A stretch of DNA of 64,000 bases from Acidobacteriota bacterium (GCA_049968315.1 JBMFRA010000008.1:662-64661); one strand, 5' to 3'; positions 9,599 to 64,000 are shown, counted from the first letter of the stretch. Made by a program: numbers and translations. Notes: generated by a model from the sequence alone, not told the origin.

Positions 9599-9632
9599 AT
9601 ATCCACAACCTGTGGAAATAACTGTGAATAAA
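9599..9632. promoter_or_regulatory. Three DnaA boxes immediately upstream of dnaA start (ATATCCACA; TGTGGAAAT = ATTTCCACA rc; TGTGAATAA = TTATTCACA rc)
   Basis: Direct match to the TTATCCACA consensus with 1 to 2 mismatches each, at 9599-9607, 9611-9619 and 9624-9632. The last box ends 2 nt before the dnaA ATG. Confidence 0.7.
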
Positions 9633-9634
9633 CC

Positions 9635-10975
9635 ATGAGCCACCGCCTGTGGGCCCAGATCCTGGAAAAGGTGAAATCGAGGGTACCGGAGAGCACCTAC
9701 GCCTCCTGGTTCAAGCCTCTCAAGCTCCTTCGTGTGGAGGAGTCCCAGGTGGTTCTCCTGACCCCCAACCCCCTCTTCCGGGAGTGGCTCGAGAGCCACT
9801 ACCGGGGGGTTTTGGAGGAGGCCGCCGCCGACGCCGGCCACCCTGGGCTGGCCATCTCCTTCGAGGACGGCCCCGGGGAGGAACTGGTCCTCCAGCCGGA
9901 GCCCGCCCCCAAGGCCTCCTCCCGGAAGGAGAAGGCCCCTCCCGCCTCCTCCCCTTCCGATCCCCTCTTCAACCCCCAGTACCGCTTCGACACCTTCGTG
10001 GTGGGCCCCTCCAACCGCTTCGCCTTCGCGGCCTGCCTGGCCGTGGCCCAGAATCCCTCCCGCTCCTACAATCCTCTCTACATTTACGGCGGCGTCGGTC
10101 TCGGAAAGACCCACCTCATGCAGTCCATCGGGGCGGAGATCAAGCGGAACAACCCCGATCTGAAGGTCTGCTACCTGTCCACCGAGCGGTTCATGAACGA
10201 GATGATCGCGTCCATCACCCACCGGAAGCAGCACGAGTTCCGGGAGCGCTACCGCCGGGCCGACGTGATCCTCCTCGACGACGTCCAGTTCCTTTCGGGC
10301 AAGGAGGGGACCCAGGAGGAACTCTTCCACACCTTCAACGCCCTCCACGAATCCCAGCGCCAGATCGTCCTCTCCTCTGACTGCCCTCCCCGGGATCTGC
10401 ACAGCATCGAGGAGCGCCTGCGCTCCCGCTTCGAGTGGGGCCTCATCGCCGACATCCAGCCCCCGGAGCTGGAGACCAAGGTGGCCATCCTGTACAAGAA
10501 GGCCGAGGCCTACCGGGTCGCCCTCCCGGAAGAGGTGGCCCTCTTCATCGCCGGGCGCATCAAGAGCAACATCCGGGAGCTGGAGGGTTGCCTCCTCCGG
10601 CTCATCGCCTTCTCCTCCTTCAAGGGCCTTCCCATCACCGTGGACCTGGCACGGGAGACCTTCGAGAGCCTCTTCAAGGAGGACGGCCGGGCCCCCACCA
10701 TCGAGTCCATCCAGCGCCACGTGGCGGCCTACTACAAGATGCGCCTCCAGGACCTCAAGGCCCGTACCAACAAGGCCAGCATCGTGCTGCCGCGCCAGGT
10801 GGCCATGTACCTCTGCAAGGAGCTGACCTCCTGCTCGCTGCCGGAGATCGGCCGGAAGTTCGGGGGCAAGCACCACACCACCGTCCTCCACGCCATCCGG
10901 AAGATCGACGAGCAAGCCAAGAAGGATCCCAACCTTCAACAGGCTATCCACAACCTAGTTCGTTCCATTCGCTGA
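9635..10975 (+). CDS. dnaA: Chromosomal replication initiator protein DnaA
   Basis: Full-length DnaA with AAA+ Walker [11 protein letters not shown], sensor motifs and a C-terminal DNA-binding domain (HTTVLHA). ATG at 9635. Confidence 0.97.
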
Positions 10976-10989
10976 GGAAAGGGACGTTC

Positions 10990-11140
10990 GGTGGAAAAGG
11001 TGCCTTGGAAAAACTGTGGAAAAGCCTGGGGGTGTTTCCAGGGGGGTCTTTTCCTCGCCCTCCACGGAGTTCTCCACAGTACTCCGGCGACCTGCAACTT
11101 CGGCCCGCCGGGACCTCCGGTACTTTTCCACAGATCCACA
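10990..11140. promoter_or_regulatory. DnaA-box cluster in dnaA-dnaN intergenic region (candidate oriC part)
   Basis: Boxes TGTGGAAAA (11016-11024, rc TTTTCCACA), TTCTCCACA (11070-11078), TTTTCCACA (11124-11132) and AGATCCACA (11132-11140), plus weaker GGTGGAAAA (10990-10998). A CTATCCACA also sits at 10944-10952 inside the dnaA 3' end. Confidence 0.6.
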
Positions 11141-18382: not shown

Positions 18383-18456
18383 GATTCGACCCGGTGGAAA
18401 GGGGGGCCGTCCCCTTGAGAAGGGGGGGGCGGAGGTGTTATACTAACCTTCTGAGC

Positions 18457-18534
<78 letters not shown>

Positions 18535-39440: not shown

Positions 39441-41189
39441 ATGGAACAACTGGGACAGGAAGACCCGAAGAGCACCCAGCGCTTTCTGCTGGCCATGGTG
39501 GCCATGATGGCCGTCTTGGGCCTCTGGTCCCTCTTCATGGGGGGGCCCGCCGCGCCGCCCCCCGCGGCCCCCGAACCCCGCACCGCCGCCCCGGCGGAGA
39601 AGCCCGCCGCCGTGGAGCCGGCGCCGGCGCCCGGCGCCGGCGAGGCGGCGGTGGCCGATACGGAGGAGCGGCGGGTGATCCTGGAGAACGACGATCTCCT
39701 GGTGGAGGTGTCCAACCGGGGCGCCGTCCTGACCCGGGTGGTGCTGAAGAAGTACCGCATGCCCGGGGCCGACCCCGACGACCTCGTCTCGCCCCTGGCC
39801 CGGATCACCGGCCGCTACCCCCTGGCGGTGGAGACGGGGGATCCGGCCTTCGACCAGGCCGTGTCCAAGGCGCTGTTCCACGTGGAACGCAAAACGGGTC
39901 CCGCGGGGGAGCAGGTGGTGGAGCTGGCGTGGGCCGACGGGGCGGGCAACGCCCTTCGGAAGGTCCTGACGCTCCCCGCCGCGGGGTACCTCGCGGGCCT
40001 GGAGACCAGCGGCCGGAAGGGCGGCACCGTCCTCTCCCCCATTCCGCTGCGCTGGGGTCCCGGTTTCGGAACCCTCCAGAAGAGCCAGGCCAAGAACCGG
40101 TACTACCAGCAGGAGTACGTGGGACTCTTGGAGGGGACCTCCTTCCGTAAGGTCAAGCGGGCGGGGAAGGTGACGGGGGACCGCCCCCGGGAGGTGGAGG
40201 GCTTCGGGGAGAAGGCTCCGGTGGCCTGGGCCGCCATCAGCAACAACTACTTCGCCGCCGCCTTTTTGCCCGAGGGGACCCTGCCGCGGGTGAAGGTGGT
40301 GACGGAGGCCCTCTCTCCCGAGCTGCAGAAGGTGCACCCCGCCGAAAACGACGTGACCCTGGTGGTGGCCTTCCCCGGCCGGGGGCGTCTCTTCATGGGA
40401 CCCAAGCAGTGGGGCCTCCTGGCGGGCGTGGCGCCCCAGTTCAACCGCCTCACCGACTGGGGGTGGCTCACCCCCATCTGCGGCGCCCTCCTCTGGGGCC
40501 TGAAGTCCCTGTACCGGTGGGTGGGCAACTACGGCATCGCCATCATCCTCATCACGCTGGTCATCAAGCTGGCCTTCTACCCCCTCACCCAGGGCAGCAT
40601 GGTGAAGATGAAGCAGATGGGCGACGCCATGAAGCGGCTCAAGCCCCAGATCGACCGGATCAAGGCCAAGTACAAGAAGATGGGCCTGGACATGGCCACC
40701 CGCCAAAAGATGAACGAGGAGATGATGGCCCTCTACCAGAAGGAGGGCATCAACCCCCTGGGCCAGATGAGCGGGTGCCTCCCCCTCCTCCTCCAGATGC
40801 CCATCTTCTTCGCCCTCTTCGAGCTCCTGCCGCGGGCCATCGAGCTCCGGGGAGCGCCCTTCTTCGGCTGGATCCAGGACCTCTCGGTTCCGGACCCCTA
40901 CTACATCACCCCCATCCTCATGGGGGTCTCCATGATCGCCTCCACCCGCATGACCGGCTCCCAGGGACTGGAGGGGGCGCAGAAGGTCATGCTCTGGTTC
41001 ATGCCCCTCATGTTCACCTGGTTCTGCCTCTGGGCCCCGGCGGGGCTCACCCTCTACTGGCTCGCCAACAACCTGCTGACCATGGGCCAGCAGGCCCTCA
41101 TCAACCGGCAGGCGGCGGCCAGGGCGGCCGAAGCCGAGAAGGGGCGGCGGTCCACCCCCAAGGGCCCTTCCCGGCCTTCCCGTGGTTGA
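39441..41189 (+). CDS. yidC: Membrane protein insertase YidC
   Basis: Start MEQLGQE at 39441 with an AGGAGG RBS. N-terminal TM, periplasmic domain and the conserved C-terminal 5-TM core (GCLPLLLQMPIFFALF). Confidence 0.93.
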   Translation: MEQLGQEDPKSTQRFLLAMVAMMAVLGLWSLFMGGPAAPPPAAPEPRTAAPAEKPAAVEPAPAPGAGEAAVADTEERRVILENDDLLVEVSNRGAVLTRVVLKKYRMPGADPDDLVSPLARITGRYPLAVETGDPAFDQAVSKALFHVERKTGPAGEQVVELAWADGAGNALRKVLTLPAAGYLAGLETSGRKGGTVLSPIPLRWGPGFGTLQKSQAKNRYYQQEYVGLLEGTSFRKVKRAGKVTGDRPREVEGFGEKAPVAWAAISNNYFAAAFLPEGTLPRVKVVTEALSPELQKVHPAENDVTLVVAFPGRGRLFMGPKQWGLLAGVAPQFNRLTDWGWLTPICGALLWGLKSLYRWVGNYGIAIILITLVIKLAFYPLTQGSMVKMKQMGDAMKRLKPQIDRIKAKYKKMGLDMATRQKMNEEMMALYQKEGINPLGQMSGCLPLLLQMPIFFALFELLPRAIELRGAPFFGWIQDLSVPDPYYITPILMGVSMIASTRMTGSQGLEGAQKVMLWFMPLMFTWFCLWAPAGLTLYWLANNLLTMGQQALINRQAAARAAEAEKGRRSTPKGPSRPSRG

Positions 41190-44451: not shown

Positions 44452-45019
44452 CCCGCGCCTCGAGGCCTACCTGGATCTCCTCTTCGCCTGGAACCGCGCG
44501 GCGGGCCTCACCGCCTTCCGCAGCCGCCGGGAGGTCCTGGAGCGGGGGGTCGCCCCCTCGCGGCTGGCCCTTCCCTTTCTCCCGGAGGAAGGGCGGGTCC
44601 TGGACGTCGGATCGGGGGGCGGCATCCCCGCCCTCCCCCTCGCCCTGGCCCGCCCGCGCCTTTCGTGGGTGCTGGCCGAACCGGCGCCGGCCAAGGCGGT
44701 CTTCCTGGAGGAGGTGGCCCGGCGGCTGAACCTGGCCTGGGAGGTCCGGGCCCGTCCGGCGGAGGAGGTCCTCCGGAGCGGGGAGCGCTGGCGTGCGGCG
44801 ACCCTCCGCGGGATCTTCCCCCGAAAGGGGACCTTCCGGCGGCTGGCCTCGGCGCTGGAGCCGGGGGGGGTCCTGCTGGTGTGGACCGGCGGGGCGCGCC
44901 TCGAAGCCTGCCGGGAAATCTTCGGCGGATTGGGCCTTGCGGCGGAGGAGCACCCCTGCCCGGGGGCCGGGGTGGTCCTTTTGGCCGGCCGTGTTCCACG
45001 TGGAACATCCGGAGGCTGA
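44441..45019 (+). CDS. rsmG: 16S rRNA (guanine527-N7)-methyltransferase RsmG (GidB)
   Basis: SAM motif [15 protein letters not shown] and the typical N-terminus ([12 protein letters not shown]). Confidence 0.9.
44992..45007. other. parS: parS centromere-like site (TGTTCCACGTGGAACA, perfect 16-bp palindrome)
   Basis: Matches the parS consensus tGTTnCACGTGaAACa at 15 of 16 positions. It lies inside the last codons of rsmG, 100 nt upstream of parA. Confidence 0.8.
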
Positions 45020-45107
45020 GAGCCCGGCGGGAGGGCCGGGGCGGGATTCGACCCCGGCGTCTTTCCCTCGGCCTTCCGGTATGGCACAATGCGCCGGGAG
45101 GAGCGCC

Positions 45108-45869
45108 GTGGGAACCATCATCGCCGTCGCCAACCAAAAGGGCGGGGTCGGAAAGACCACCACCGTCATCAACTTGGGAGCCTCCTTGGCCGCCGCGGAA
45201 AAGCGGATCCTTCTGGTGGACTTCGACCCCCAATCCAACTGTACGTCGGGGCTGGGGGTGTCCTCCCCCGACGGCCGGAACGTCTACGGGTGCCTCTCGG
45301 GCTCCGCCGGCCCGGAGGAAGTGCTAGTGTCCTGCGGCCTGCCCAACCTCCAGCTCCTTCCCGGAGCCGTCTCCCTGGCGGGGGCCGAGGTAGAACTGGC
45401 CGGGGTTCCCCAGCGGGAGTTCGTCCTCCGGAACCTCCTGGGGCCCCTCAAGGACCGCTACGACTACATCCTGGTGGACTGCCCCCCCTCCCTGGGCCTG
45501 CTCACCCTCAACGCCCTGGTGGCGGCGGACGGGGTGCTCATCCCCATCCAGGCGGAGTTCTTCGCCATGGAGGGGGTTTCGCTCCTCCTGCGTACCCTGG
45601 AACGGGTCCGCGAGTCCCTCAACCCCGAGCTGGCCGTCACCGGCGTCCTCCTCACCATGGTGGACGAGCGGACCAACCTCGCCCGCCAGGTCTCCGCCGA
45701 GGTCCAGCGCTTCTTCGGGGGGCGGGTCTTCCGGGCCTCCATCCCCCGCAACGTCAAGCTCGCCGAGGCCCCCTCCTTCGGAAAGCCGGCCCTCCTGTAC
45801 GATGTGGCCTCCCGGGGGGCCCAGGCCTACCTGCACGTGGCCAAGGAGTTCCTCTCCCATGAACCCTAA
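45108..45869 (+). CDS. parA: Chromosome partitioning ATPase ParA (Soj)
   Basis: Deviant Walker A ANQKGGVGKTTT. GTG start at 45108, 5 nt after AGGAGG; an upstream in-frame ATG at 45081 is an alternative. Confidence 0.93.
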   Translation: MGTIIAVANQKGGVGKTTTVINLGASLAAAEKRILLVDFDPQSNCTSGLGVSSPDGRNVYGCLSGSAGPEEVLVSCGLPNLQLLPGAVSLAGAEVELAGVPQREFVLRNLLGPLKDRYDYILVDCPPSLGLLTLNALVAADGVLIPIQAEFFAMEGVSLLLRTLERVRESLNPELAVTGVLLTMVDERTNLARQVSAEVQRFFGGRVFRASIPRNVKLAEAPSFGKPALLYDVASRGAQAYLHVAKEFLSHEP

Positions 45870-46704
45870 GAACGTCCTGGGACGGGGCCTGGACGCCCTC
45901 ATCGGCGCGCCGGGTCCCGAAGCCAAGCGGGTCCTCGAGGTGGAGATCCACCGCCTGAAGCCCAACCCCCGGCAGCCCCGCACCGCCTTCGATTCGGAGG
46001 CCCTGGACGAGCTGGCGCGCTCCATCGCCGAGAACGGGATCCTCCAGCCCATCCTGGTGCGCCCCGCCGACGGGGGCTACGAGATCATCGCCGGGGAGCG
46101 CCGGTGGCGGGCGGCCCAGCAGGCCGGCCTCCACCGTGTCCCTGTCCTGGTCCGGGAGGCCGCCGATCCCCAGTTGCTGGAACTGGCGCTGGTGGAAAAC
46201 CTCCAGAGGGCGGACCTCAACCCCGTGGAGGAGGCCCGGGCCTACCGGCTCCTGGTGGAGGATCTGGGGCTGACCCAGGAGGAGGTGGCCCGAAAGGTGG
46301 GGAAGGACCGGGCTACGGTGGCCAACGTGCTTCGGCTCCTCCACCTCCCCGAGCCGGCCCTCCGGGCCCTGGAGGAAGGGCGCCTCACCGTGGGCCACGC
46401 CAAGGCCCTCCTCTCCCGGCGGCGCCGGGAGGAGCAGGCCGCCCTCCTGGAGGCCATCCTTCGCAGGGGCCTTTCGGTCCGGGAGGCGGAGGCCTTCCAG
46501 CTCCCCGCCAAGGCGGCCGCCCCTGAGCGGAGAAGCGACCCGGACACCGCCGCGGCGGAGAAGACCCTGAGCCGCCACCTGGGGCTTCCCGTCACCATCC
46601 GGCGCCGGGGGAAGGGCGGGCGCCTGGAGGTGGCCTTCCGCAACGAAGAGGAGTTGCAGGGGCTCTACGAGCGGCTTCTCGGCGAGAGGAGGAGGACCCC
46701 ATGA
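45859..46704 (+). CDS. parB: Chromosome partitioning protein ParB (Spo0J)
   Basis: ParB box [10 protein letters not shown] and an HTH region. ATG at 45859 overlapping the parA end. Confidence 0.93.
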
Positions 46705-47108
46705 TGGGAAAGAAGGTCTCCGACGCCGTCCAGGTGGGCGGCATGCTGGGAGAAGGGGTAACGGTGGAGGGGACGCTGACCTTCACCCAGACCTTCCGCG
46801 TGGACGGAGAGTTCAAAGGGAAGATCCTCCGCTCCGACCGCCTGGTGGTGGGGGAGAAGGGCAAGGTCTCCGGGGAGGTGGAGGTCAATTCCCTGGTGGT
46901 CTACGGCCGCCTGGAGGGCAAGGCCCTGGTGAAGGGGCCGGTGGAGGTCCACCCCAAAGGCCGGGTGGTGGGCGAGCTGACCCTCACGGCGCCCCTCCTG
47001 ACGGTGATGGACGGAGGGTTCCTCGAGGGGACCCTGCGGCTCCAGGAGAAGGGTGCTCCGCCGCCGGAGAAGCCCGAGAAGAAGGCCGCCGGGGAGGAAC
47101 CCCGGTGA
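46701..47108 (+). CDS. Bactofilin (DUF583 polymer-forming cytoskeletal protein)
   Basis: Repetitive beta-helical G-x-V/L pattern typical of the bactofilin domain. Start overlaps the parB stop. Confidence 0.8.
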   Translation: MMGKKVSDAVQVGGMLGEGVTVEGTLTFTQTFRVDGEFKGKILRSDRLVVGEKGKVSGEVEVNSLVVYGRLEGKALVKGPVEVHPKGRVVGELTLTAPLLTVMDGGFLEGTLRLQEKGAPPPEKPEKKAAGEEPR

Positions 47109-51677: not shown

Positions 51678-52928
51678 TCAGGGGGCCGTCCAGGCGGGGA
51701 CGCCCCCGATGTAGACCGCCCGGAGGCCGCCTTCGCCGTAAGGGTAGAAGAGGTGCAGGTAATCGGGGCGGTCCCAGAGGGTGAAGTCGGCCCGCTTGCC
51801 CTCCTCGAGGGAGCCGGCCTCGCCGTGGATCCGAAGGGCGTAGGCGGCGTTGAGGGTCACCCCCCAGATGGCCTCCTCCGGGAGGAGCCCCATGCCGAAG
51901 ACGGCGAGGGTCACGGCTTCCCAGAGGTTGGTGGTGTAGGACGAGCCGGGGTTGCAGTCGGTGGAGAGGGCCACGGCGCACCCGCCCTCCAGGAGGGCCC
52001 GGGCCGGCGCGAAGGCCTTGCGGAGGTAGAAGGAGGTTCCAGGCAGGAGGGTGGCCACGACCCCCTCCCGGGCCAGGGCGGCGATTCCCTCGGGGGAAAC
52101 GGCCATGAGGTGGTCGGCGCTCACGGCCCCCACCTCCGCCGCCAGGGCCGCCCCGCCGGTGTCCACGATCTCGTCGGCGTGGAGGCGGGGGAGGAGGCCG
52201 AGGGCCTTTGCCTCCAGGAGGATGCGGCGGGACTGCTCCGGCGTAAAGGCCCCCTCCTCGCAGAAGACGTCGCAGAAGCGGGCGAGCCCCAGGGCCGCCA
52301 CCTCCGGCAGGATCTCCCCGCAGAGAAGGTCCACGTAGGCCTCCGGGGAATGGCGGAACTCCGGCGGCACGAAGTGGGCGCCCAGGAAGGTGGCCACCAC
52401 CCGCTGGGGGCCCCGGCGATCCAGAGCGGCGATCACCCGGAGCTGTTTGAGTTCCGCCTCGCGGCAGAGGCCGTATCCGCTCTTGGCCTCGAAGGCCGTG
52501 ACGCCGTGCCGGAGGAAGCGCCGGGCCAGGTCCCCCCCGGCCCCCAGGAGCTCCTCTTCCGGAGCCGCCCGCACCGCCTCCATGGTGGAGAGAATTCCGC
52601 CACCGGCCCGGGCGATCTCCATGTAGGTGGCGCCCTTCAGGCGTAGGGCCAGCTCGTGGGCGCGGTCGCCGAGGAAGGGAACGTGGGTGTGGGGGTCCAC
52701 CAGGCCCGGAAGGACCGTTGCCCGGGGAGCCTCCAGGCGGTGGGCGGCGGAGGCGCCGCGGACCTCCCTCCAGGGCCCCGCGAAGGCCACCCGCCCGTTT
52801 CGGATCCCCAGGGCCCCCTCCCCGAGGGCCGGCAGCTCCGAAGCGGCGGGCCCGCGCCGGGGCGCTTCCCCAGCGCAGGTCACCAGGCACCCGATGGGGC
52901 CCACCAAGAGGTCGAAGTCGGCGCCCAT
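51678..52928 (-). CDS. Imidazolonepropionase-like amidohydrolase (HutI family)
   Basis: Start MGADFDLL at 52928; the listed 766-aa ORF is an extension. Motifs GLVDPHTHVPF, FEAKSGYGL and RLHADE. Confidence 0.65.
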   Translation of the reverse strand: MGADFDLLVGPIGCLVTCAGEAPRRGPAASELPALGEGALGIRNGRVAFAGPWREVRGASAAHRLEAPRATVLPGLVDPHTHVPFLGDRAHELALRLKGATYMEIARAGGGILSTMEAVRAAPEEELLGAGGDLARRFLRHGVTAFEAKSGYGLCREAELKQLRVIAALDRRGPQRVVATFLGAHFVPPEFRHSPEAYVDLLCGEILPEVAALGLARFCDVFCEEGAFTPEQSRRILLEAKALGLLPRLHADEIVDTGGAALAAEVGAVSADHLMAVSPEGIAALAREGVVATLLPGTSFYLRKAFAPARALLEGGCAVALSTDCNPGSSYTTNLWEAVTLAVFGMGLLPEEAIWGVTLNAAYALRIHGEAGSLEEGKRADFTLWDRPDYLHLFYPYGEGGLRAVYIGGVPAWTAP

Positions 52929-53428
52929 CAGGATTCCCGGCCCAGCGTGGCCACGTTCTCCCGCTTCTCCTCCTCCGAGAGGGCCTCCACCAGGGCCGAA
53001 AGGCGGGAGACCAGATCCTGGAGGCCCTGGACCAGCGCCCGGCGCTCGGTGCGCAGGTCCAGGATCTGGCGTTCGATGGCGGTGGCCCGGAGCTGGGCCT
53101 GCTGGATCAGGGCCTGGCCCTTGATTTCCGCCTCCTGGACGGTGCTCTGGGCCTCCCGCAAGGCCTGGGCCTTCAGGTCGTCGGAAACCTTCTGGGCGGT
53201 GTAGAGGGCCTCCCGCAGGAGCCCCTCCCGGTGGCGGAACTCCTCCAGGGCGGCCTCCAGGTGTTCCTTGTCCTTGAGGAGCCGCTGGTTCTCCAAGGTG
53301 AGGGCCTGGTAGGACTCGGCGGCGGCCTGGAGGAAGAGCTGGACCTCGTCGGGGTCGAAACCCCGGAAGACCCGGCGGAAGGTGGCCGACTGGACCTCGA
53401 TGGGGGACAGGGGTTTGCGCGTGGTCAT
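52928..53428 (-). CDS. divIVA: Cell division protein DivIVA (coiled-coil)
   Basis: N-terminal DivIVA signature PIEVQSATFRRVFRGFDPDEVQLFL followed by a coiled coil. Confidence 0.85.
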   Translation of the reverse strand: MTTRKPLSPIEVQSATFRRVFRGFDPDEVQLFLQAAAESYQALTLENQRLLKDKEHLEAALEEFRHREGLLREALYTAQKVSDDLKAQALREAQSTVQEAEIKGQALIQQAQLRATAIERQILDLRTERRALVQGLQDLVSRLSALVEALSEEEKRENVATLGRES

Positions 53429-54214: not shown

Positions 54215-55030
54215 ATGCTGGAACGGGAGGCGACGTTGGCCGAAGGTTCCACCCTGCGCTACGAGGGAATTCCCCTGGCGGACTTTCTGGCGGCCCTGGG
54301 CCTCCGGGAGAGGCCCGGCCTTCTCCCCGCACCGTCCGCCCTTAAGGAGGCCCTCCTCTCGGCCTCCTGGAGCCCCGTCCCCGGCGAGGCCTCGCCCCTG
54401 TCCCTCTACCTCTTGGAGGAACGGGACGCCCTGACCCAGACGCGGGAGGCCTACCTCCTGGTGAAGGGGGAGGGGCGCTACGCCCGCCCGCTCAGGGAGT
54501 TGGTCCTCCGCCTCGGCCGCTTTTTCCGGGGCCGGAACCTTCCCGTCCTCTTCCGGATCGATCCCCGCTACGGCCTCCTGGTGGGAAGCGCCCTGGAACC
54601 GCTGGACCCCGCCGTCAAATGGGACCGCCCCAGGGTCTACGCCGCCCTGGCCTTCACCGCCGACCCCGCCTCTCCCTCCCTCGCCCTCCTGGAGTACGTT
54701 CCCGCCTCCCAGCAGGCGGCCTACCGGGCGCTCTTCGTCAAGTACAACGGGGTGGAACCGGCCCGCCCGGGGCTTCTGACCCAGGTCTTTCGGCGGTGGA
54801 AGGGTTCCCGGGCCGAAGGAGAGGCAGGTCCCGGAGGGCTCACCTACGGGATGTTGGCCACCCTGGGGGCCTTTCTCCAGCGGGAGAGCGTGGAGAAGGC
54901 TTCCCTTTCGCTGATCTTCAAGGGGATTTCCCCGTCGGAGGCCGCCGGCTTCGTCCTGGACCCCGGACGGGCCACCTTCTACCCCTCCGGCTACGACCGT
55001 TTCTTCGCCTCCCTGGGGGAGCTGGCGTGA
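54215..55030 (+). CDS. Hypothetical protein (271 aa)
   Basis: In-frame C-terminal portion of a long ORF; ATG at 54215 sits 70 nt from the divergent yggS start. No recognizable domain. Confidence 0.45.
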   Translation: MLEREATLAEGSTLRYEGIPLADFLAALGLRERPGLLPAPSALKEALLSASWSPVPGEASPLSLYLLEERDALTQTREAYLLVKGEGRYARPLRELVLRLGRFFRGRNLPVLFRIDPRYGLLVGSALEPLDPAVKWDRPRVYAALAFTADPASPSLALLEYVPASQQAAYRALFVKYNGVEPARPGLLTQVFRRWKGSRAEGEAGPGGLTYGMLATLGAFLQRESVEKASLSLIFKGISPSEAAGFVLDPGRATFYPSGYDRFFASLGELA

Positions 55031-55659
55031 GGACCGCCCGCCTCGTGACGGCCCTCGGCCTGCTGGTGGCCTCCGCCGCCGCCCACGGCATGGAGCTGGT
55101 GGTCTTCCGGTCGGAGCGCTCCCTGGTGGTGGAACGGGTGGAACGGGACGAGGGGCTCCTGGTTCTCGTCCTTCCCGGCGGCGGAAGGCTTGGGGTCCCG
55201 GAGGAAGAGATCCTCCAGCGCTTCGAGGGGTACGTCCCCCCGCCCGAGGAGCGGGAACCGGAGAAGCCCCTCCCGCCCTCCCTGCCCTACCGGGAGATCA
55301 TCGCCCGGGCCTGCCAGGAAAACCAGGTGGACTGGAAGCTGGTGGCGGCCCTCATCCGGGTGGAATCCAACTTCAACCCCCGGGCCGTCTCCCCCAAGGG
55401 CGCCCAGGGGCTCATGCAGCTCATGCCTTCCACCCAGGCCGACCTGGGGGTGAAGGACCCCTTCTCGCCGGAGGAGAACATCCAGGGCGGCGTCCGCTAC
55501 CTGAGGTGGCTCCTCGATGCCTTTCAGGGAGACCTGGAGCTCACCCTGGCGGCCTACAACGCCGGAATCCGCAGGGTCCAGGCGATCCAGGCCGTACCAC
55601 CCATCCCCGAGACCCAGCGCTACGTCGCCCGGATCCTGGCGCTCTACCCCACCCTCTGA
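55027..55659 (+). CDS. Lytic transglycosylase (SLT domain), secreted
   Basis: GTG start with a signal-like RTARLVTALGLLVASAAAHG. SLT motifs ESNFNPRAVSPKGAQGLMQLMPST and AYNAG. Confidence 0.8.
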   Translation: MRTARLVTALGLLVASAAAHGMELVVFRSERSLVVERVERDEGLLVLVLPGGGRLGVPEEEILQRFEGYVPPPEEREPEKPLPPSLPYREIIARACQENQVDWKLVAALIRVESNFNPRAVSPKGAQGLMQLMPSTQADLGVKDPFSPEENIQGGVRYLRWLLDAFQGDLELTLAAYNAGIRRVQAIQAVPPIPETQRYVARILALYPTL

Positions 55660-55665
55660 CCGCCC

Positions 55666-56850
55666 ATGGCCCCAAGCCCCCCCCGGGTTCTCCACCTCAA
55701 CACGGAGCGGTCCTACCGGGGGGGGGAGGTACAGACCCTGGGCCTCCTCCGGGAGCTGGCCCGCCGGGGTTACGCACCGCTCCTCGCCGCCCCCCCGGGG
55801 GCGCCCCTGGCCCGGCTGGCGGCGGAGGGGGGGATCCCCGTCCTCCCCTGGTCCCTCCGGGGGGAGGCCGACCCCGTTGCCGCCTTCAGGATCCTCCGGT
55901 GGGCCCGGCGGGAGGGGGTGGCCCTCCTCCACGCCCACACGGCCCACGCCCTCACCCCGGCCCTGGTGGCGGGGTTTTGGGGGGGCCTTCCGGTGGTGGC
56001 CACCCGCCGGGTCTCCTTCCCCCTCCGGGGCCCCCTCTCCCGCTGGAAGTACCGGAGGGCCTCGGCGGTGGTGGCGGTGAGCGGCGCCATCGCCGGGCAA
56101 CTGGCGGCGGCGGGGGTCCCGGCGGACCGCCTTCGGGTGATCCACAGCGCGGTGGATCTCGGGCGGCTCCTCCCGCTGCCGTCCCGGGAGGAGGCGCGCC
56201 GGCGCCTGGGACTCTCGGGGGGGGACCGGGTCTTGGGGGTGGCGGCGGCCCTGGCCCCCCACAAGGGCCACGCCGTCCTCTTCGAGGCCCTGGCCGGCCT
56301 GTCGGAGGTGCAACCGCACCTGGTGGTCCTGCTGGCGGGAGAGGGCTCCCTGCGGCGGGAGCTGGAGGAACAGGCGCGGCGGCGGGGCCTGCCGGTCCGC
56401 TTTCTCGGCCACCTCCAAGACCTTCGAGACTTCTTCGCCTCCCTGGACCTCCTGGTCCTGCCCTCCCTTTCCGGCGAGGGGTCCCCCGGGGCGGTCAAGG
56501 AGGCGGCGGCCTCGGGGGTGCCGGTGGTGGCCACCCGGGTGGGGGGCACGGAGGAGGTCCTTCGGGAGGGCCGGGAGGCCCTCCTCGTCCCCCCTGGGGA
56601 CTCCCGGGCCCTGGCCCGGGCCATCCTCCGCCTCCTCGAGGACCGGGAGCTGGCCGTGAGCCTCGCGGCCCGGGCCCGGGAGCGCTCCCTGGACTTCGGA
56701 ATGGACCGGATGGCCGAGGCCTACCTCCTCCTCTACGGCCGCCTTACGGGGCAGGGGGCCCGTTCCGCCGCCGTTGGGGCCTCCACCGACAGTGGGGGAA
56801 GAGCTTCCGCAGGTAGCGGCGGAGAAGGGCCGGTTCCACCGGAAGGGTGA
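55666..56850 (+). CDS. Glycosyltransferase family 4 (GT-B, group 1)
   Basis: The C-terminal domain carries an EGSPGAVKEAAASGVPVVAT-type motif. The 3' end overlaps the convergent regulator by about 100 nt, so the true stop may be earlier. Confidence 0.75.
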   Translation: MAPSPPRVLHLNTERSYRGGEVQTLGLLRELARRGYAPLLAAPPGAPLARLAAEGGIPVLPWSLRGEADPVAAFRILRWARREGVALLHAHTAHALTPALVAGFWGGLPVVATRRVSFPLRGPLSRWKYRRASAVVAVSGAIAGQLAAAGVPADRLRVIHSAVDLGRLLPLPSREEARRRLGLSGGDRVLGVAAALAPHKGHAVLFEALAGLSEVQPHLVVLLAGEGSLRRELEEQARRRGLPVRFLGHLQDLRDFFASLDLLVLPSLSGEGSPGAVKEAAASGVPVVATRVGGTEEVLREGREALLVPPGDSRALARAILRLLEDRELAVSLAARARERSLDFGMDRMAEAYLLLYGRLTGQGARSAAVGASTDSGGRASAGSGGEGPVPPEG

Positions 56851-57358
56851 AGTGGCCCTGCACCCCCGATTCCTCCAAGGCTTCCAGCGTCTCGGCGTCC
56901 TCCGAGGGGAGGAGGACGGCCACTCGGACGCTCGCCGTCTCCGCCGAGCGGTAGAGCCGGCGGCAGACCTCCAGGCCGTCCCACCGGCGGTCCGAGAGGT
57001 CCACCAGGACGAAGTGGGGGCGGAAGGCCAGGAAGGCGAAGCCCGCCTCGAAGGCCGAGGAGGGGACCTCCACCTCGAAGTCGGGGCTCCACCGGGCCGC
57101 CGCCTCCGCCAGGCCCCGCTGCCCCGGGGCCACCAGGAAGAGGAGGCGGCGTCCCCCCGCCCGGAATTCGGCGGGCAGGGGCATGGCGTGGGCCTCCAGG
57201 AAGGCGTCCAGATCCTGCCGCCGGATCCGCCGGTGGCCTCCGGGGGTCCGGAAGGCACGAAGGCGCCCGCTGTTCACCCAGTTTCGGACGGTGTAGGGGC
57301 TCACGCCGCAGTAGCGGGCGGCCTGCCAGGTGGTGAGGAGGTGCGGGCCCTCCGCCAT
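56744..57358 (-). CDS. Excisionase/MerR-family HTH DNA-binding domain fused to a receiver-like (pseudo-receiver) domain
   Basis: HTH LTTWQAARYCGVSPYTVRNWVNSGRL, then a CheY-like fold with VLVDLSDRRWDGLEV but lacking the N-terminal acidic pair (LFLVAPGQ). Start MAEGPHLL at 57358. Confidence 0.6.
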   Translation of the reverse strand: MAEGPHLLTTWQAARYCGVSPYTVRNWVNSGRLRAFRTPGGHRRIRRQDLDAFLEAHAMPLPAEFRAGGRRLLFLVAPGQRGLAEAAARWSPDFEVEVPSSAFEAGFAFLAFRPHFVLVDLSDRRWDGLEVCRRLYRSAETASVRVAVLLPSEDAETLEALEESGVQGHFTLPVEPALLRRYLRKLFPHCRWRPQRRRNGPPAP

Positions 57359-57359
57359 C

Positions 57360-57707
57360 TCAGCGCCCCCCGCCGGAGGTCTCCCCCGCGAGGACCCGCC
57401 CCTGGACCACGGCGCCGTCCTCCACGAGGATATGGCCGGCCCGGATGTCCCCCGCCACCCGCCCGCCGCTCCGAATGGCCACCCACCCGGTGGCGGTGAC
57501 GGGACCTTCCACCGTCCCCCCCACCTCCACATCCCGGGCGGAGAGGGGCCCCTCCAGCCGTGCCCCCCGGGCGATGACGACCCGGGCCGTGGAGCGGACC
57601 TCCCCCACGAGGACACCCTCCAGAAGGAGATCGTCGGCGGTCTCGAGGGTTCCCTTCAGGCGGGATCCGGCGTCGATTCGCGTCTCCAACGAAGCCTCCC
57701 CCTCCAT
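57360..57707 (-). CDS. Bactofilin family protein
   Basis: Start MEGEASLE at 57707; beta-helical repeats (GTLETADDLLLEGVLVGEV ... GPLSARDVEVGGTVEG ... GDIRAGHILVEDGAVVQG). One nt upstream of the HTH-receiver gene. Confidence 0.75.
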   Translation of the reverse strand: MEGEASLETRIDAGSRLKGTLETADDLLLEGVLVGEVRSTARVVIARGARLEGPLSARDVEVGGTVEGPVTATGWVAIRSGGRVAGDIRAGHILVEDGAVVQGRVLAGETSGGGR

Positions 57708-57774
57708 GATACGGCCAACGGGGAAGGCTGGGGAGGGGCTTCGCCCGCCGCGGCGGGGTGGGTATACTGGGCCC

Positions 57775-58215
57775 ATGCGACGCGCCCTCTCTCCGGTCCT
57801 CTCGGCCTTCCTGCTGGCAGCCGTCCCAGCGGTTCCCCCATGGAGCCAGGAGACGCCGCCGCCGGCGGCGGCCCGGGAGGGGTCCTCCGGCCTGGCCCTC
57901 CAGTGGGAGAAGGACTTCGACCTGCTCTACGACCTAGAGGGCGCCGACCCGGTACGGGAGGCGGCGGAGACCCGCCGGAAGGCCCTGGAGCTGGAACGGC
58001 AGGGGCTCGACGTCCGTATCGGAGAGCTCCGGGAGCGGCTCCGCTCCCTGGAGGGAAGCTACAGCACCGAACTCCTCCTCCGGGAGATGCTGGCCCTCGA
58101 CGTGGGGACCCTCCAGGAGGTCCAGGCGGTGCTCCGGAGGGAGCTGGCCGCCGCGGAAGGGCGCCGGAAAGAGGTGGAGGAGGCCCTACGCCGGCTGCCG
58201 GGGGGCAGGCCGTGA
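57775..58215 (+). CDS. Secreted coiled-coil protein, hypothetical (146 aa)
   Basis: Signal peptide MRRALSPVLSAFLLAAVPAVPPWS, then charged helical sequence. A TATACT -10 lies 6 nt upstream of the ATG, possibly a leaderless transcript. The stop overlaps the downstream GTG. Confidence 0.55.
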   Translation: MRRALSPVLSAFLLAAVPAVPPWSQETPPPAAAREGSSGLALQWEKDFDLLYDLEGADPVREAAETRRKALELERQGLDVRIGELRERLRSLEGSYSTELLLREMLALDVGTLQEVQAVLRRELAAAEGRRKEVEEALRRLPGGRP

Positions 58216-59576
58216 GGGGGCGCCTCCTGCTGGCGGAGGACCGGGCGGGCCTCCGCAGGGCCCTTTCGGAAGTCCTGGCCCGCGAGGGCTACGAGGTCCT
58301 GGAGGCACCCGACGGGCGGGCGGGCCTCCAACGGGTCGAGGCCGGGGGGTACGACCTGGGGCTCTTCGACCTGAAGCTCCCCCACCACGACGGCCTGGAA
58401 CTGCTGAAGGCCAGCCGGGAGCGGTGGCCCCTGGTGCCGGTGGTGCTCCTCACCGCCTACGGTTCGGTGGAGTCGGCGGTGGCCGCCATGAAGGGGGGGG
58501 CCGCCGATTTCCTCCAGAAGCCGGTGGACCCCGGGCACCTCCTCCTGGTGGTCCAGCGGGTCCTCCAGGCTTCCCGGCGGGACCGCCTGGAAGAGGTCCG
58601 GGCCATGGACGCCGAGCGCCTCGCCGCCTTCCGCCCGATCCTCGGCCGAAGCGCCGTCCTTCGGGCCGCGCAGGAGCAGGCCGCCCGGGTGGCGCCCACC
58701 TCCGCCACCTGCCTCCTTCTCGGCGAGACGGGGGTGGGCAAGGAACTCTTCGCCCGGGCCATCCACGCGGCGGGCCCCCGCCGGGACCACCCCTTCGTGG
58801 CCGTCAACTGCGCCGCCATCCCCGAAAGCCTTCTGGAGAACGAGCTCTTCGGCCACGAGAAGGGGGCCTTCACCGGGGCGCACGCCGCCGCCGTGGGAAA
58901 GGTGGAGTACGCCCACGGGGGGACCCTGTTCCTCGACGAGATCGGCGAGATGGGGCCCGCCCTCCAGGCCAAGCTCCTCCGCGTCATCGAGGAGAAGACC
59001 TTCACCCGGGTGGGCTCCGCCCGCCCCATCCAGGTGGACGTGCGGGTCATCTGCGCCACCCACCGGGACCTCTCCGCCATGGTCCGGGAGGGGGCCTTCC
59101 GGGAGGACCTCTACTACCGCCTCGGCGCCTTTCCCATCCGAATTCCGCCGCTTCGGGAGCGCCCCGAGGACATCCCCCTCTTGGCGGAGCACTTCCTCGG
59201 CCTCTTCCGAAAGGAAACCGGGAGGCCGGAGCTGACCCTTTCGGAGGAGGCCCACAGGGCCCTGGCGGCGTACCGGTGGCCCGGCAACGTGCGGGAACTC
59301 ATGAACCGTCTGGAGCGGGCCGCCATCCTGGCCCCCCCCGACGGGCGGGTGGGCCCAGCCCTGTTGGCTCTGGAGGCGTCGCCCTCCTCCGAAAGCCCGC
59401 CGCCGGCGCCCGAGTCCACCCCCGACCCCGAACGGTGGCTCCAGGAGGAGGAACGGTGGCGCGCCCGGGAACTCCTGCGCCTCTGCGGGGGGGACCGCCG
59501 CCGGACCGCCCGTCTGCTGGAGTGGCCCCTCTCCCGGCTGGAGGCCGCCCTGAAGGGGGGAGGTCCGAAACTTTGA
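58212..59576 (+). CDS. Sigma-54-dependent response regulator (NtrC family: REC + AAA+ + Fis HTH)
   Basis: Receiver LLAEDRAGLR ... DLGLFDLKLP, sigma-54 activator GETGVGKE, GAFTGA-type ELFGHEKGAFTGA and C-terminal RTARLLEWPLSRL. GTG start. Confidence 0.9.
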   Translation: MRGRLLLAEDRAGLRRALSEVLAREGYEVLEAPDGRAGLQRVEAGGYDLGLFDLKLPHHDGLELLKASRERWPLVPVVLLTAYGSVESAVAAMKGGAADFLQKPVDPGHLLLVVQRVLQASRRDRLEEVRAMDAERLAAFRPILGRSAVLRAAQEQAARVAPTSATCLLLGETGVGKELFARAIHAAGPRRDHPFVAVNCAAIPESLLENELFGHEKGAFTGAHAAAVGKVEYAHGGTLFLDEIGEMGPALQAKLLRVIEEKTFTRVGSARPIQVDVRVICATHRDLSAMVREGAFREDLYYRLGAFPIRIPPLRERPEDIPLLAEHFLGLFRKETGRPELTLSEEAHRALAAYRWPGNVRELMNRLERAAILAPPDGRVGPALLALEASPSSESPPPAPESTPDPERWLQEEERWRARELLRLCGGDRRRTARLLEWPLSRLEAALKGGGPKL

Positions 59577-61483: not shown

Positions 61484-62125
61484 ATGATCGGACGGAAGAA
61501 AGGCTTTCTGGAACATGTCGCGGCCCTCTCTGCGGCCGCCGCGGGCCTCTTCCTCGTCAACGTGTGGAGCAAGCCCGCCCAATGGGCCGCCCAATCGGCC
61601 CAGCCGTCACCCAAGGCGTACCTTTGCCGGGGGAACCTCTTCCCGGCGGAGATCCTTCTGACCAAGGCCCTGGCCGACTGCCGCCAGCGGTGGCCCCGCC
61701 CCCTCTTCGACCGGACGGTGGCGGCCATCGAGGAGGTGCGGGCCCGGTACGGCTACGACCCCGCTTTCATCGTGAGCCTCATCGAGCGCGAGAGCGCCTT
61801 CGAGGTGGGGGCCGTCTCCCCCCAGGGGGCGGTGGGCCTCATGCAGATCCTGCCGGCCACCGCCCGCCGGGTGGCGGCCCAGGAGGGGGTGTCCCTGCAG
61901 GGGGCCAGCCTCTTCGACCCGGAGGTCAACCTCCGGTTGGGCTTTGCCTACCTGGCGGACCTCCAACGCCGGTACGGCGGGCTCGAGGAGGCACTGGTGG
62001 TGTACAACGCCGGCCCGCAGGCTCTCCGCTCCCAGCAGAAGGGCGAGGTGCTGCGGCGAAGGATCTACCGCCGGGGGATCCGGGAGGCCCAGGCCCGCTA
62101 CGACCGCTGGTTGAAAAGCCGCTGA
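61484..62125 (+). CDS. Lytic transglycosylase (SLT domain)
   Basis: ERESAFEVGAVSPQGAVGLMQILPATA and VYNAG motifs; hydrophobic N-terminus. Confidence 0.8.
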   Translation: MIGRKKGFLEHVAALSAAAAGLFLVNVWSKPAQWAAQSAQPSPKAYLCRGNLFPAEILLTKALADCRQRWPRPLFDRTVAAIEEVRARYGYDPAFIVSLIERESAFEVGAVSPQGAVGLMQILPATARRVAAQEGVSLQGASLFDPEVNLRLGFAYLADLQRRYGGLEEALVVYNAGPQALRSQQKGEVLRRRIYRRGIREAQARYDRWLKSR

Positions 62126-63898: not shown

Positions 63899-64000
63899 GT
63901 CTCCCTCCTCTCTCCCCCATTTTGACCGTCCCCAATGCGAGCGGCAAGGGCGCCGGAGCCACGGCCTTGGAAGCCGGGAAAGCGGCCGGGAACCCTGGGC

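Follow-up and report, generated by a model that had tools for sequence, protein, structure and literature searches.

A bactofilin gene paired with a gene for a BldC-like pseudo-receiver protein, divergent from a coiled-coil/sigma-54 activator operon, in the replication-origin region of an Acidobacteriota genome

The known partners of bactofilins are few, comprising PbpC, LmdC-type M23 peptidases, PadC/ParB, SpmX and Csd proteins, and parAB and PadC are the bactofilin neighbors in Myxococcus. In the BacNOP-PadC-ParABS system of Myxococcus xanthus, bactofilins are reportedly linked, both in the genome and in function, with the partition locus near the origin and with a partner that binds DNA. 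An N-terminal membrane-targeting peptide is typical of bactofilins without being universal. Among regulators, BldC of Streptomyces binds DNA head-to-tail on direct repeats, and orphan NtrC-like activators are common in Myxococcota. BacA-LmdC is a morphogenetic module composed of a bactofilin and an M23 peptidase, and M23 peptidases are known bactofilin neighbors (PMC10945521); the membrane-targeting peptide of bactofilins is the subject of PMC12448750. Our literature search revealed nothing linking bactofilins to helix-turn-helix (HTH) or response-regulator partners, no characterized protein combining an HTH_17 domain with a receiver domain (HTH_17-REC), and no bactofilin studies in Acidobacteriota. 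Here we describe a four-gene unit that pairs a bactofilin gene with an HTH_17-REC gene in 64,000 nucleotides of an Acidobacteriota metagenome-assembled genome (MAG; GCA_049968315.1, JBMFRA010000008.1:662-64661; this whole stretch is referred to below as the window).

The unit comprises two gene pairs that diverge from a short shared promoter region (Table 1). On the minus strand, a bactofilin gene (bactofilin 2) is followed by the gene for a BldC-like HTH protein with a degenerate receiver domain; on the plus strand, a gene for a putative exported coiled-coil protein overlaps the gene for an NtrC-family sigma-54 activator. Our best reading, to which we assign a probability of about 0.45, is that a phosphorylation-independent, BldC-like DNA-binding regulator is co-expressed with a tail-less bactofilin, beside a sigma-54 activator that is controlled distally. 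Confidence in the gene anatomy is much higher than in this mechanism. Reading of the open reading frames confirmed the positions that the initial annotation had given for the bactofilin gene and its spacing from the HTH gene, as well as the divergent gene with a signal-peptide-like segment and its GTGA overlap with the activator gene. The annotation was also right to call this bactofilin the second of the window, as bactofilin 1 follows parB.

Analysis of the HTH-pseudo-receiver protein revealed a BldC/excisionase-type winged HTH at residues 1-57. The HTH_17 profile of Pfam matched with E=8e-17 and 61.7 bits (cutoff 27), the TIGR01764 excisionase-family DNA-binding domain passed its cutoff (54.6 bits versus 28.8), and the NCBIfam model HTH_BldC (NF033787) matched at E=1.7e-13 and 50.2 bits, under its cutoff of 77. 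The excisionase-type HTH proposed at the outset is thus well founded. The closest PDB sequence matches of the HTH were the BldC structures 6AMK and 6AMA, in an alignment that spans the T-x-GGHRR motif. BldC is the founding member of a family of MerR-like winged-HTH regulators, and the N-terminal 55 residues of our protein align over the full BldC HTH; neither has the MerR coiled-coil dimerization helix. BldC is a single domain of 68 residues; our protein adds a receiver fold C-terminal to the HTH, and its match to the family model falls short of the cutoff. The protein is predicted to bind DNA.

Residues 70-186 have the (beta-alpha)5 fold of a receiver with a degenerate phospho-pocket. The Pfam Response_reg profile (PF00072) reached 18.7 bits, under its cutoff of 30.2. 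An AlphaFold2 model built from 121 sequences had a mean predicted local distance difference test (pLDDT) score of 89, and in its receiver part, predicted at pLDDT >90, five strands and five helices alternate. The top Foldseek matches of the model were receiver domains with template-modeling scores of 0.84-0.88 (normalized to target length), among them 3CNB, the receiver of a MerR-type response regulator. The C-terminal domain is therefore a true receiver fold. Alignment to CheY revealed that the canonical pocket is reduced to the acceptor Asp alone. The Mg2+-binding acidic pair after beta1 (CheY D12/D13) is lost, with V76-A77-P78 in its place; T87 at the end of beta4 corresponds to L150, and K109 at the end of beta5 to L172, followed by P173; the phospho-acceptor D57 at the end of beta3 is kept as D120. 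The initial annotation had called this domain a pseudo-receiver lacking the N-terminal acidic residues and had allowed that careful alignment might uncover an intact pocket, and none was found. Because only the acceptor Asp is kept although the receiver fold is well formed, the term pseudo-receiver is justified for the window protein. The retained fold and lost pocket residues are shared with atypical response regulators such as WhiI and BldM of Streptomyces, which were compared together with the MerR-type 3CNB. Atypical regulators are presumed to function independently of phosphorylation, and the same may hold here; the domain order is reversed, with the HTH N-terminal and the receiver C-terminal.

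To place this protein in its family, 582 relatives were collected from 5.8 billion proteins; nearly all are of about 200 amino acids, with HTH_17 N-terminal and the receiver C-terminal. The phospho-pocket was then surveyed at 85 genome loci by alignment to CheY. This analysis revealed the full DD-D-T/S-K pocket in most HTH_17-REC lineages, including Polarisedimenticolaceae, Desulfobacterales, Myxococcota, Elusimicrobia and Planctomycetia. Degenerate pockets were found in the clade of the window (L001-L009), in a second group (L020, L043, L060) and in a separate group from Nitrospinota and unclassified MAGs (L036, L039, L049, L050, L055, L062, L066). Neighbor-joining trees placed the first two groups as sisters. 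In the third group an N-G-D motif replaces the acidic pair and G or D replaces the Thr, and no bactofilin lies within 8 kb; receiver decay seems to have occurred independently here. Members of the window clade and of its sister group that have enough flanking sequence all adjoin a bactofilin gene, with the exception of one nested sub-lineage, and outside these two groups no genome locus of the family has a bactofilin within 8 kb. In one branch of the family, then, decay of the receiver and proximity to a bactofilin go together, and they do so in two different gene contexts; on the evidence of a distance tree, this is consistent with a single ancestral event. A search for a universal neighbor of the HTH_17-REC family by clustering of flanking open reading frames revealed only lineage-specific neighborhoods, for example pyrG/kdsC in Myxococcota.

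The gene contexts were defined by scanning genome and metagenome contigs with local hidden Markov models for bactofilin, the coiled-coil protein, the activator, ParA, ParB and M23. Three types of locus were distinguished. In type II (the window, L001-L009 and those of the contigs L098-L114 that hold a bactofilin), the ntrC-type gene and the coiled-coil gene are divergent from bactofilin and then the HTH-pseudo-receiver gene. Type III (L096, L097, L099, L112) has the same arrangement minus bactofilin. In type I (L020, L043, L060 and L086-L093, with genome records labeled Gemmatimonadales), the genes for a bactofilin, an M23 peptidase, parB and parA are divergent from the HTH-pseudo-receiver gene, and mnmA lies downstream. 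All four genes of the unit recur in the same order on genome and metagenome contigs wherever the flanking sequence suffices; the arrangement is not due to chance, because this order is found in about a dozen distinct lineages. Within the window clade the bactofilin gene is directly upstream of the HTH gene in an operon, with a gap of 1-10 nt in the window, L001, L003 and L005. Type III lacks the bactofilin alone; its HTH-pseudo-receiver gene, its coiled-coil/ntrC operon and all genes on either flank remain in their usual order. Because it nests inside type II in the tree, type III represents a secondary loss of bactofilin. A C-terminal tail motif of the HTH-pseudo-receiver protein, LFP[YHN]C.W, occurs in types II and III but not in type I; it follows the coiled-coil/ntrC adjacency rather than the bactofilin.

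Protein identity to the window orthologues was 79-84% for GlmS, encoded in the flanking sequence, compared with 59-72% for the NtrC-type activator, 42-60% for the HTH-pseudo-receiver protein, 44-56% for bactofilin 2 and 34-54% for the coiled-coil protein, the fastest-evolving member of the unit. A convergent overlap with the gene of a GT4 glycosyltransferase (55666-56850, plus strand) marks the other end of the HTH-pseudo-receiver gene, spanning 107 nt (56744-56850) in the window, about 101-107 nt also in L001 and L005, and only 8 nt in L003.

Bactofilin 2 matches PF04519 over profile positions 1-97 of 98 (E=3e-22, 79 bits; cutoff 27.9). Comparison of orthologues showed that type II bactofilins are a bare beta-helix core, with no N-terminal extension, no N-terminal membrane-targeting peptide and only 1-5 residues after the domain. 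At 57689 an in-frame TTG follows the Shine-Dalgarno-like run GGGGGAGG and gives a protein of 109 amino acids that begins M-E-T-R-I-D. Since orthologous bactofilins start M-E-T-x-L/I-D and this run precedes the TTG, the real start may be this codon, 6 codons downstream of the ATG. In bactofilin 1 of the window, unlike bactofilin 2, the N-terminus reads MMGKK and the tail is rich in Pro, Lys and Glu. The N-terminus of type I bactofilins is M-[AS]-D-K, and their tails comprise 40-67 residues. By sequence identity bactofilin 2 is nearer to the M23-linked type I bactofilin (34%) than to bactofilin 1 (26%). The type I loci contain just the bactofilin-M23 pair of BacA-LmdC; the window differs in that no M23 gene is adjacent, the neighbors being SLT transglycosylases, GT4 and SppA, and in that bactofilin 2 has no N-terminal tail.

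The second gene pair begins with a coiled-coil protein that had no Pfam or NCBIfam match and is 100% identical to ACP5VN_03235 (NCBI) of an Acidobacteriota MAG. The source lineage was located through this identity and through a 98% relative; look-ups of the exact sequences of bactofilin 2 and of the HTH protein returned no record. Its orthologues share an N-terminus with positive charge, a hydrophobic stretch and a cleavage-like site of small residues, from which export is predicted, as well as the motifs W[DE][KR]DFDL and EG[ST]Y[ST][ST]E.LL.EML. A role as a sensor accessory of the ZraP/CpxP/Spy kind was considered and rejected, as neither the protein nor its orthologues contain an LTXXQ motif and no family match was obtained. 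The activator matched Response_reg (86.6 bits), Sigma54_activat (PF00158, 237 bits) and AAA_lid_14 in Pfam and remained under every NCBIfam equivalog cutoff. Its GAFTGA loop is present and conserved (...GHEKGAFTGAHAA...), and its receiver pocket is intact as initially described (E9-D10, D53, T81 and K103) and invariant in 13 orthologues. No match to HTH_8 (PF02954) was found at E<=0.01; by alignment to the C-terminus of NtrC, the protein appears to keep a Fis-like helix-turn-helix scaffold, with a conserved 'GGDRRRAARLLG' helix, and its recognition helix is without the usual basic residues of NtrC. The protein resembles NtrC/AtoC/ZraR-type activators in its apparent REC-AAA+ (GAFTGA)-HTH architecture and its intact phospho-pocket, and differs from them in its divergent C-terminal HTH, in having no adjacent kinase and in its translational coupling to a putatively exported coiled-coil protein that is not ZraP/CpxP-like.

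The absence of a nearby histidine kinase, noted from the start, was borne out by domain and motif scans. Pfam scans of the called genes in the 64 kb identified HATPase_c only in GyrB, a motif scan of all six-frame open reading frames of the window identified no kinase H-box or G1/G2 boxes, and no histidine kinase was present in the annotated 8 kb on either side of the orthologues. Because no kinase domain or motif occurs in the window, the activator counts as an orphan within the limits of these 64 kb. A further sigma-54 activator gene was seen in L001 at 1-1082; it encodes 467 amino acids without a receiver domain, has a weak HTH_8 match and is divergent from the hyp298 gene, and its equivalent in the source contig would sit just past window position 64000. 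The initial annotation had also proposed a search for local -24/-12 promoters as a route to the targets of the activator. This search proved unproductive: allowing up to 2 mismatches, the consensus matched the window 11 times compared with 13 expected, an approximate position weight matrix built by us gave only weak matches within genes, and no match was positionally conserved in 13 orthologous loci.

Inspection of the divergent region revealed -10 boxes that point to promoters of the sigma-70 type. In 15/15 distinct type II/III loci, the coiled-coil start codon is preceded at a spacing of 6-8 nt by a TATACT box (in rare cases TATAGT-like). Because this near-invariant box sits so close to the start codon, the coiled-coil/ntrC mRNA is predicted to be leaderless and is probably sigma-70-driven; with a promoter of this type, the operon does not seem to be driven by the activator that it encodes. 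In most loci another -10 box is found ahead of the bactofilin gene (ahead of the HTH gene in type III), and in the window a weaker TATCAT takes this place on the minus strand. A strict scan of 56.5-59.8 kb for sigma-70 promoters and terminators returned no sites, and the -10 box seems to be the main element of the promoters of the unit. On both strands of the 64 kb there are just two TATA[ACG]T hexamers, and the other TATACT is located 12 nt upstream of a tRNA gene (18457-18531; region 18439-18531); this suggests that promoters reliant mainly on the -10 box, with leaders that are very short or absent, are characteristic of the genome. A search for shared operators in the divergent region found the top 6-mers in 8/15 sequences, compared with a mean maximum of 7.0 (highest 10) in shuffled controls, and only the two -10 boxes stood out. 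Visual inspection picked out GC-rich palindromes in the window and in L001, but these were not conserved.

Pfam annotation of the called genes identified the window as the replication-origin region (oriC/parABS) of the MAG, with dnaA, dnaN, recF, gyrB, gyrA and the atp operon, and with rnpA, yidC, mnmE, mnmG, rsmG, parA, parB, bactofilin 1 and an M24 peptidase gene. DnaA-box-like 9-mers numbered 7 compared with 1.7 expected; four of them, each with a single mismatch, fall at 10944-11132, in the interval from dnaA (9632-10975) to the start of the dnaN domain, and two more at 9599-9631, just 5' of dnaA. Two parS-like palindromes were identified, where 0.02 would be expected from shuffled controls. 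The parA-parB-bactofilin 1 operon spans 45100-47108, and the bactofilin 1 start overlaps the parB stop by 4 nt. On one side of the unit lie glmS, glmU, genes for an amidohydrolase, divIVA, yggS, a hypothetical gene, an SLT transglycosylase gene and the GT4 glycosyltransferase gene; on the other side are sppA, the second SLT gene, nifU and an AMMECR1-family gene. The surrounding block, with divIVA, yggS, two SLT genes, glmS, glmU, GT4 and sppA, is of cell-envelope or cell-division character. Two tRNAs were the only Rfam matches in the window. The GC content is about 0.70-0.75 and uniform along the window, and the view of the unit as an island did not survive: horizontal acquisition was rejected on this uniform composition together with the clade-wide collinearity, and the unit forms part of some 16 kb of cell-envelope genes that lie close to the origin and are inherited vertically.

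Table 1. Positions of the four-gene unit and of other features in the window
Feature	Position	Strand	Description
HTH-pseudo-receiver gene	56744..57358	-	204 aa; ATG 57358, 1 nt after the bactofilin 2 stop codon (57362-57360)
Bactofilin 2	57360..57707	-	ATG 57707 to TGA 57360; 115 aa; PF04519
Divergent promoter region	57708..57774		67 bp between bactofilin 2 and the coiled-coil gene
TATACT -10 box	57763-57768	+	6 nt before the coiled-coil ATG
Exported coiled-coil protein (putative)	57775..58215	+	ATG 57775 to TGA 58215; 146 aa
NtrC-family sigma-54 activator	58212..59576	+	454 aa; GTG 58212 overlaps the coiled-coil stop as GTGA
Probable oriC	9599-11132		DnaA-box-like 9-mers around dnaA
Second parS-like palindrome	39874-39889		inside yidC; 3 mismatches
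parS-like palindrome	44992-45007		TGTTCCACGTGGAACA; rsmG/parA junction; 2 mismatches to consensus
Bactofilin 1	46701-47108	+	PF04519 E=1e-21; directly 3' of parA-parB
divIVA	52928-53428		flanks the unit
SLT-domain lytic transglycosylases, two paralogues	55030-55659 and 61484-62125		flank the unit

Taken together, these data point to the following model. Two back-to-back operons, probably with sigma-70-type promoters, form a conserved unit in one Acidobacteriota clade. The first would co-express a core-only bactofilin with a BldC-like DNA-binding protein, whose receiver would descend from genuine HTH_17-REC response regulators through loss of the residues that bind Mg2+ and phosphate. This regulator would act without phosphorylation, in the cell-envelope or morphogenesis pathway of the bactofilin, and its pseudo-receiver would serve as a module for oligomerization or partner binding and not as a switch. 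The second operon would give a leaderless mRNA in which an exported coiled-coil protein is translationally coupled to a phosphorylatable NtrC-type activator; the kinase of this activator would be encoded elsewhere, and its sigma-54 promoters would also lie elsewhere.

Several observations weigh against this model. The functional statements in it are all drawn from genomic context. Type III has lost the bactofilin cleanly, which shows that the HTH protein has no strict need for bactofilin in cis. Some orthologues, such as that of L003, keep a near-complete pocket (E-E/D/S/K), and the S/T and the K are also retained in some; those with the near-complete pocket may still be open to phosphorylation. 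Long-branch attraction could have inflated the sister relationship between the two bactofilin-linked groups, which was obtained from a distance tree. Local autoregulation is unsupported, since the divergent region holds no conserved operator-like motif. Finally, throughout the type II/III clade gene order is preserved over the entire block of about 16 kb that reaches from hyp298 and AMMECR1 as far as glmS, so that conservation of the unit is inseparable from general synteny and, within the clade, the adjacency of the four genes may be inherited and not selected.

This last point leads to an explanation in which the four genes are neighbors only through an unrearranged origin-proximal block and each acts independently. 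We consider it unlikely. The collinearity of seventeen genes across the clade would fit it, as would the loss of bactofilin alone and the lack of both a shared regulatory motif and a local sigma-54 promoter. It accounts poorly, however, for a bactofilin linkage that occurs in two gene contexts and in lineages labeled as different phyla, with no bactofilin near the other genome loci of the family, and the spacings of 1 nt and 4 nt within the operons indicate co-translation.

A second explanation keeps the link between the two proteins and changes its nature. The pseudo-receiver would dock on a polymer of the tail-less bactofilin, and the HTH would anchor or organize origin-proximal DNA on this cytoskeletal scaffold, by a logic like that of PadC/ParB on BacNOP in Myxococcus. 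A bactofilin without membrane-targeting peptide or tail would need a partner for its positioning or its clients, and the tight operon coupling of bactofilin 2 to the HTH gene, together with the coincidence of pocket decay and bactofilin linkage, would agree with such a tether. BldC-type HTHs multimerize on DNA (PMC5859096). From the locus, parS is 12 kb away and the DnaA-box cluster about 46 kb, and the sister-group orthologue adjoins parAB-M23-bactofilin. The parA-parB-bactofilin 1 operon of the window and the sister-clade parA-parB-M23-bactofilin genes beside the HTH-pseudo-receiver gene likewise resemble BacNOP-PadC-ParABS; the differences are that no PadC-like protein is present here, the candidate partner being the HTH-pseudo-receiver protein, and that bactofilin 2 lies 10 kb from parAB and is without the long tails of BacP. 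However, type III keeps the HTH protein without a bactofilin, the LFP[YHN]C.W tail is retained in these bactofilin-less loci and so is not a bactofilin-binding peptide, and our scan identified no parS near the HTH-pseudo-receiver gene in either locus type. An improbable case on this balance, the tether would in its boldest form, which we regard as a shade more doubtful, make the degenerate-receiver HTH_17-REC branch an unrecognized class of bactofilin clients that dock on the tail-less polymer and couple origin-proximal DNA or transcription to the scaffold; such a class would have arisen once and been retained in two phyla, beside parAB-M23-bactofilin or with a dedicated bactofilin operon.

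Very unlikely, finally, is heterodimerization of the pseudo-receiver with the NtrC-type receiver, by which it would supply or modulate DNA targeting for an activator with a degenerate HTH (the BldM-WhiI heterodimer is a precedent, and heterodimers of atypical response regulators are described in PMC4125116). In its favor, the coiled-coil/ntrC operon is the one neighbor kept in both types II and III, the LFP[YHN]C.W tail goes with it, and the activator has neither an HTH_8 match nor the usual basic residues in its recognition helix. Against it, the Fis-like scaffold of the activator is still conserved, sister-group orthologues have no such activator nearby, and the adjacency may be plain synteny.

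The preferred reading, a phosphorylation-independent BldC-like regulator co-expressed with a tail-less bactofilin, involves only domains of known families, and what is new is the subfamily with a degenerate receiver and its linkage to bactofilin. By comparison, there is little unusual about the orphan NtrC-type activator or the predicted leaderless operon. The HTH_17-REC proteins also make a clean evolutionary case: in a family of genuine response regulators, the phospho-pocket is lost in the same branch that gains a new genomic partner. For bactofilins, a pseudo-response regulator that binds DNA and accompanies their genes in two separate contexts would represent a new kind of candidate partner, and it offers bactofilin biologists a concrete hypothesis to examine in Acidobacteriota.

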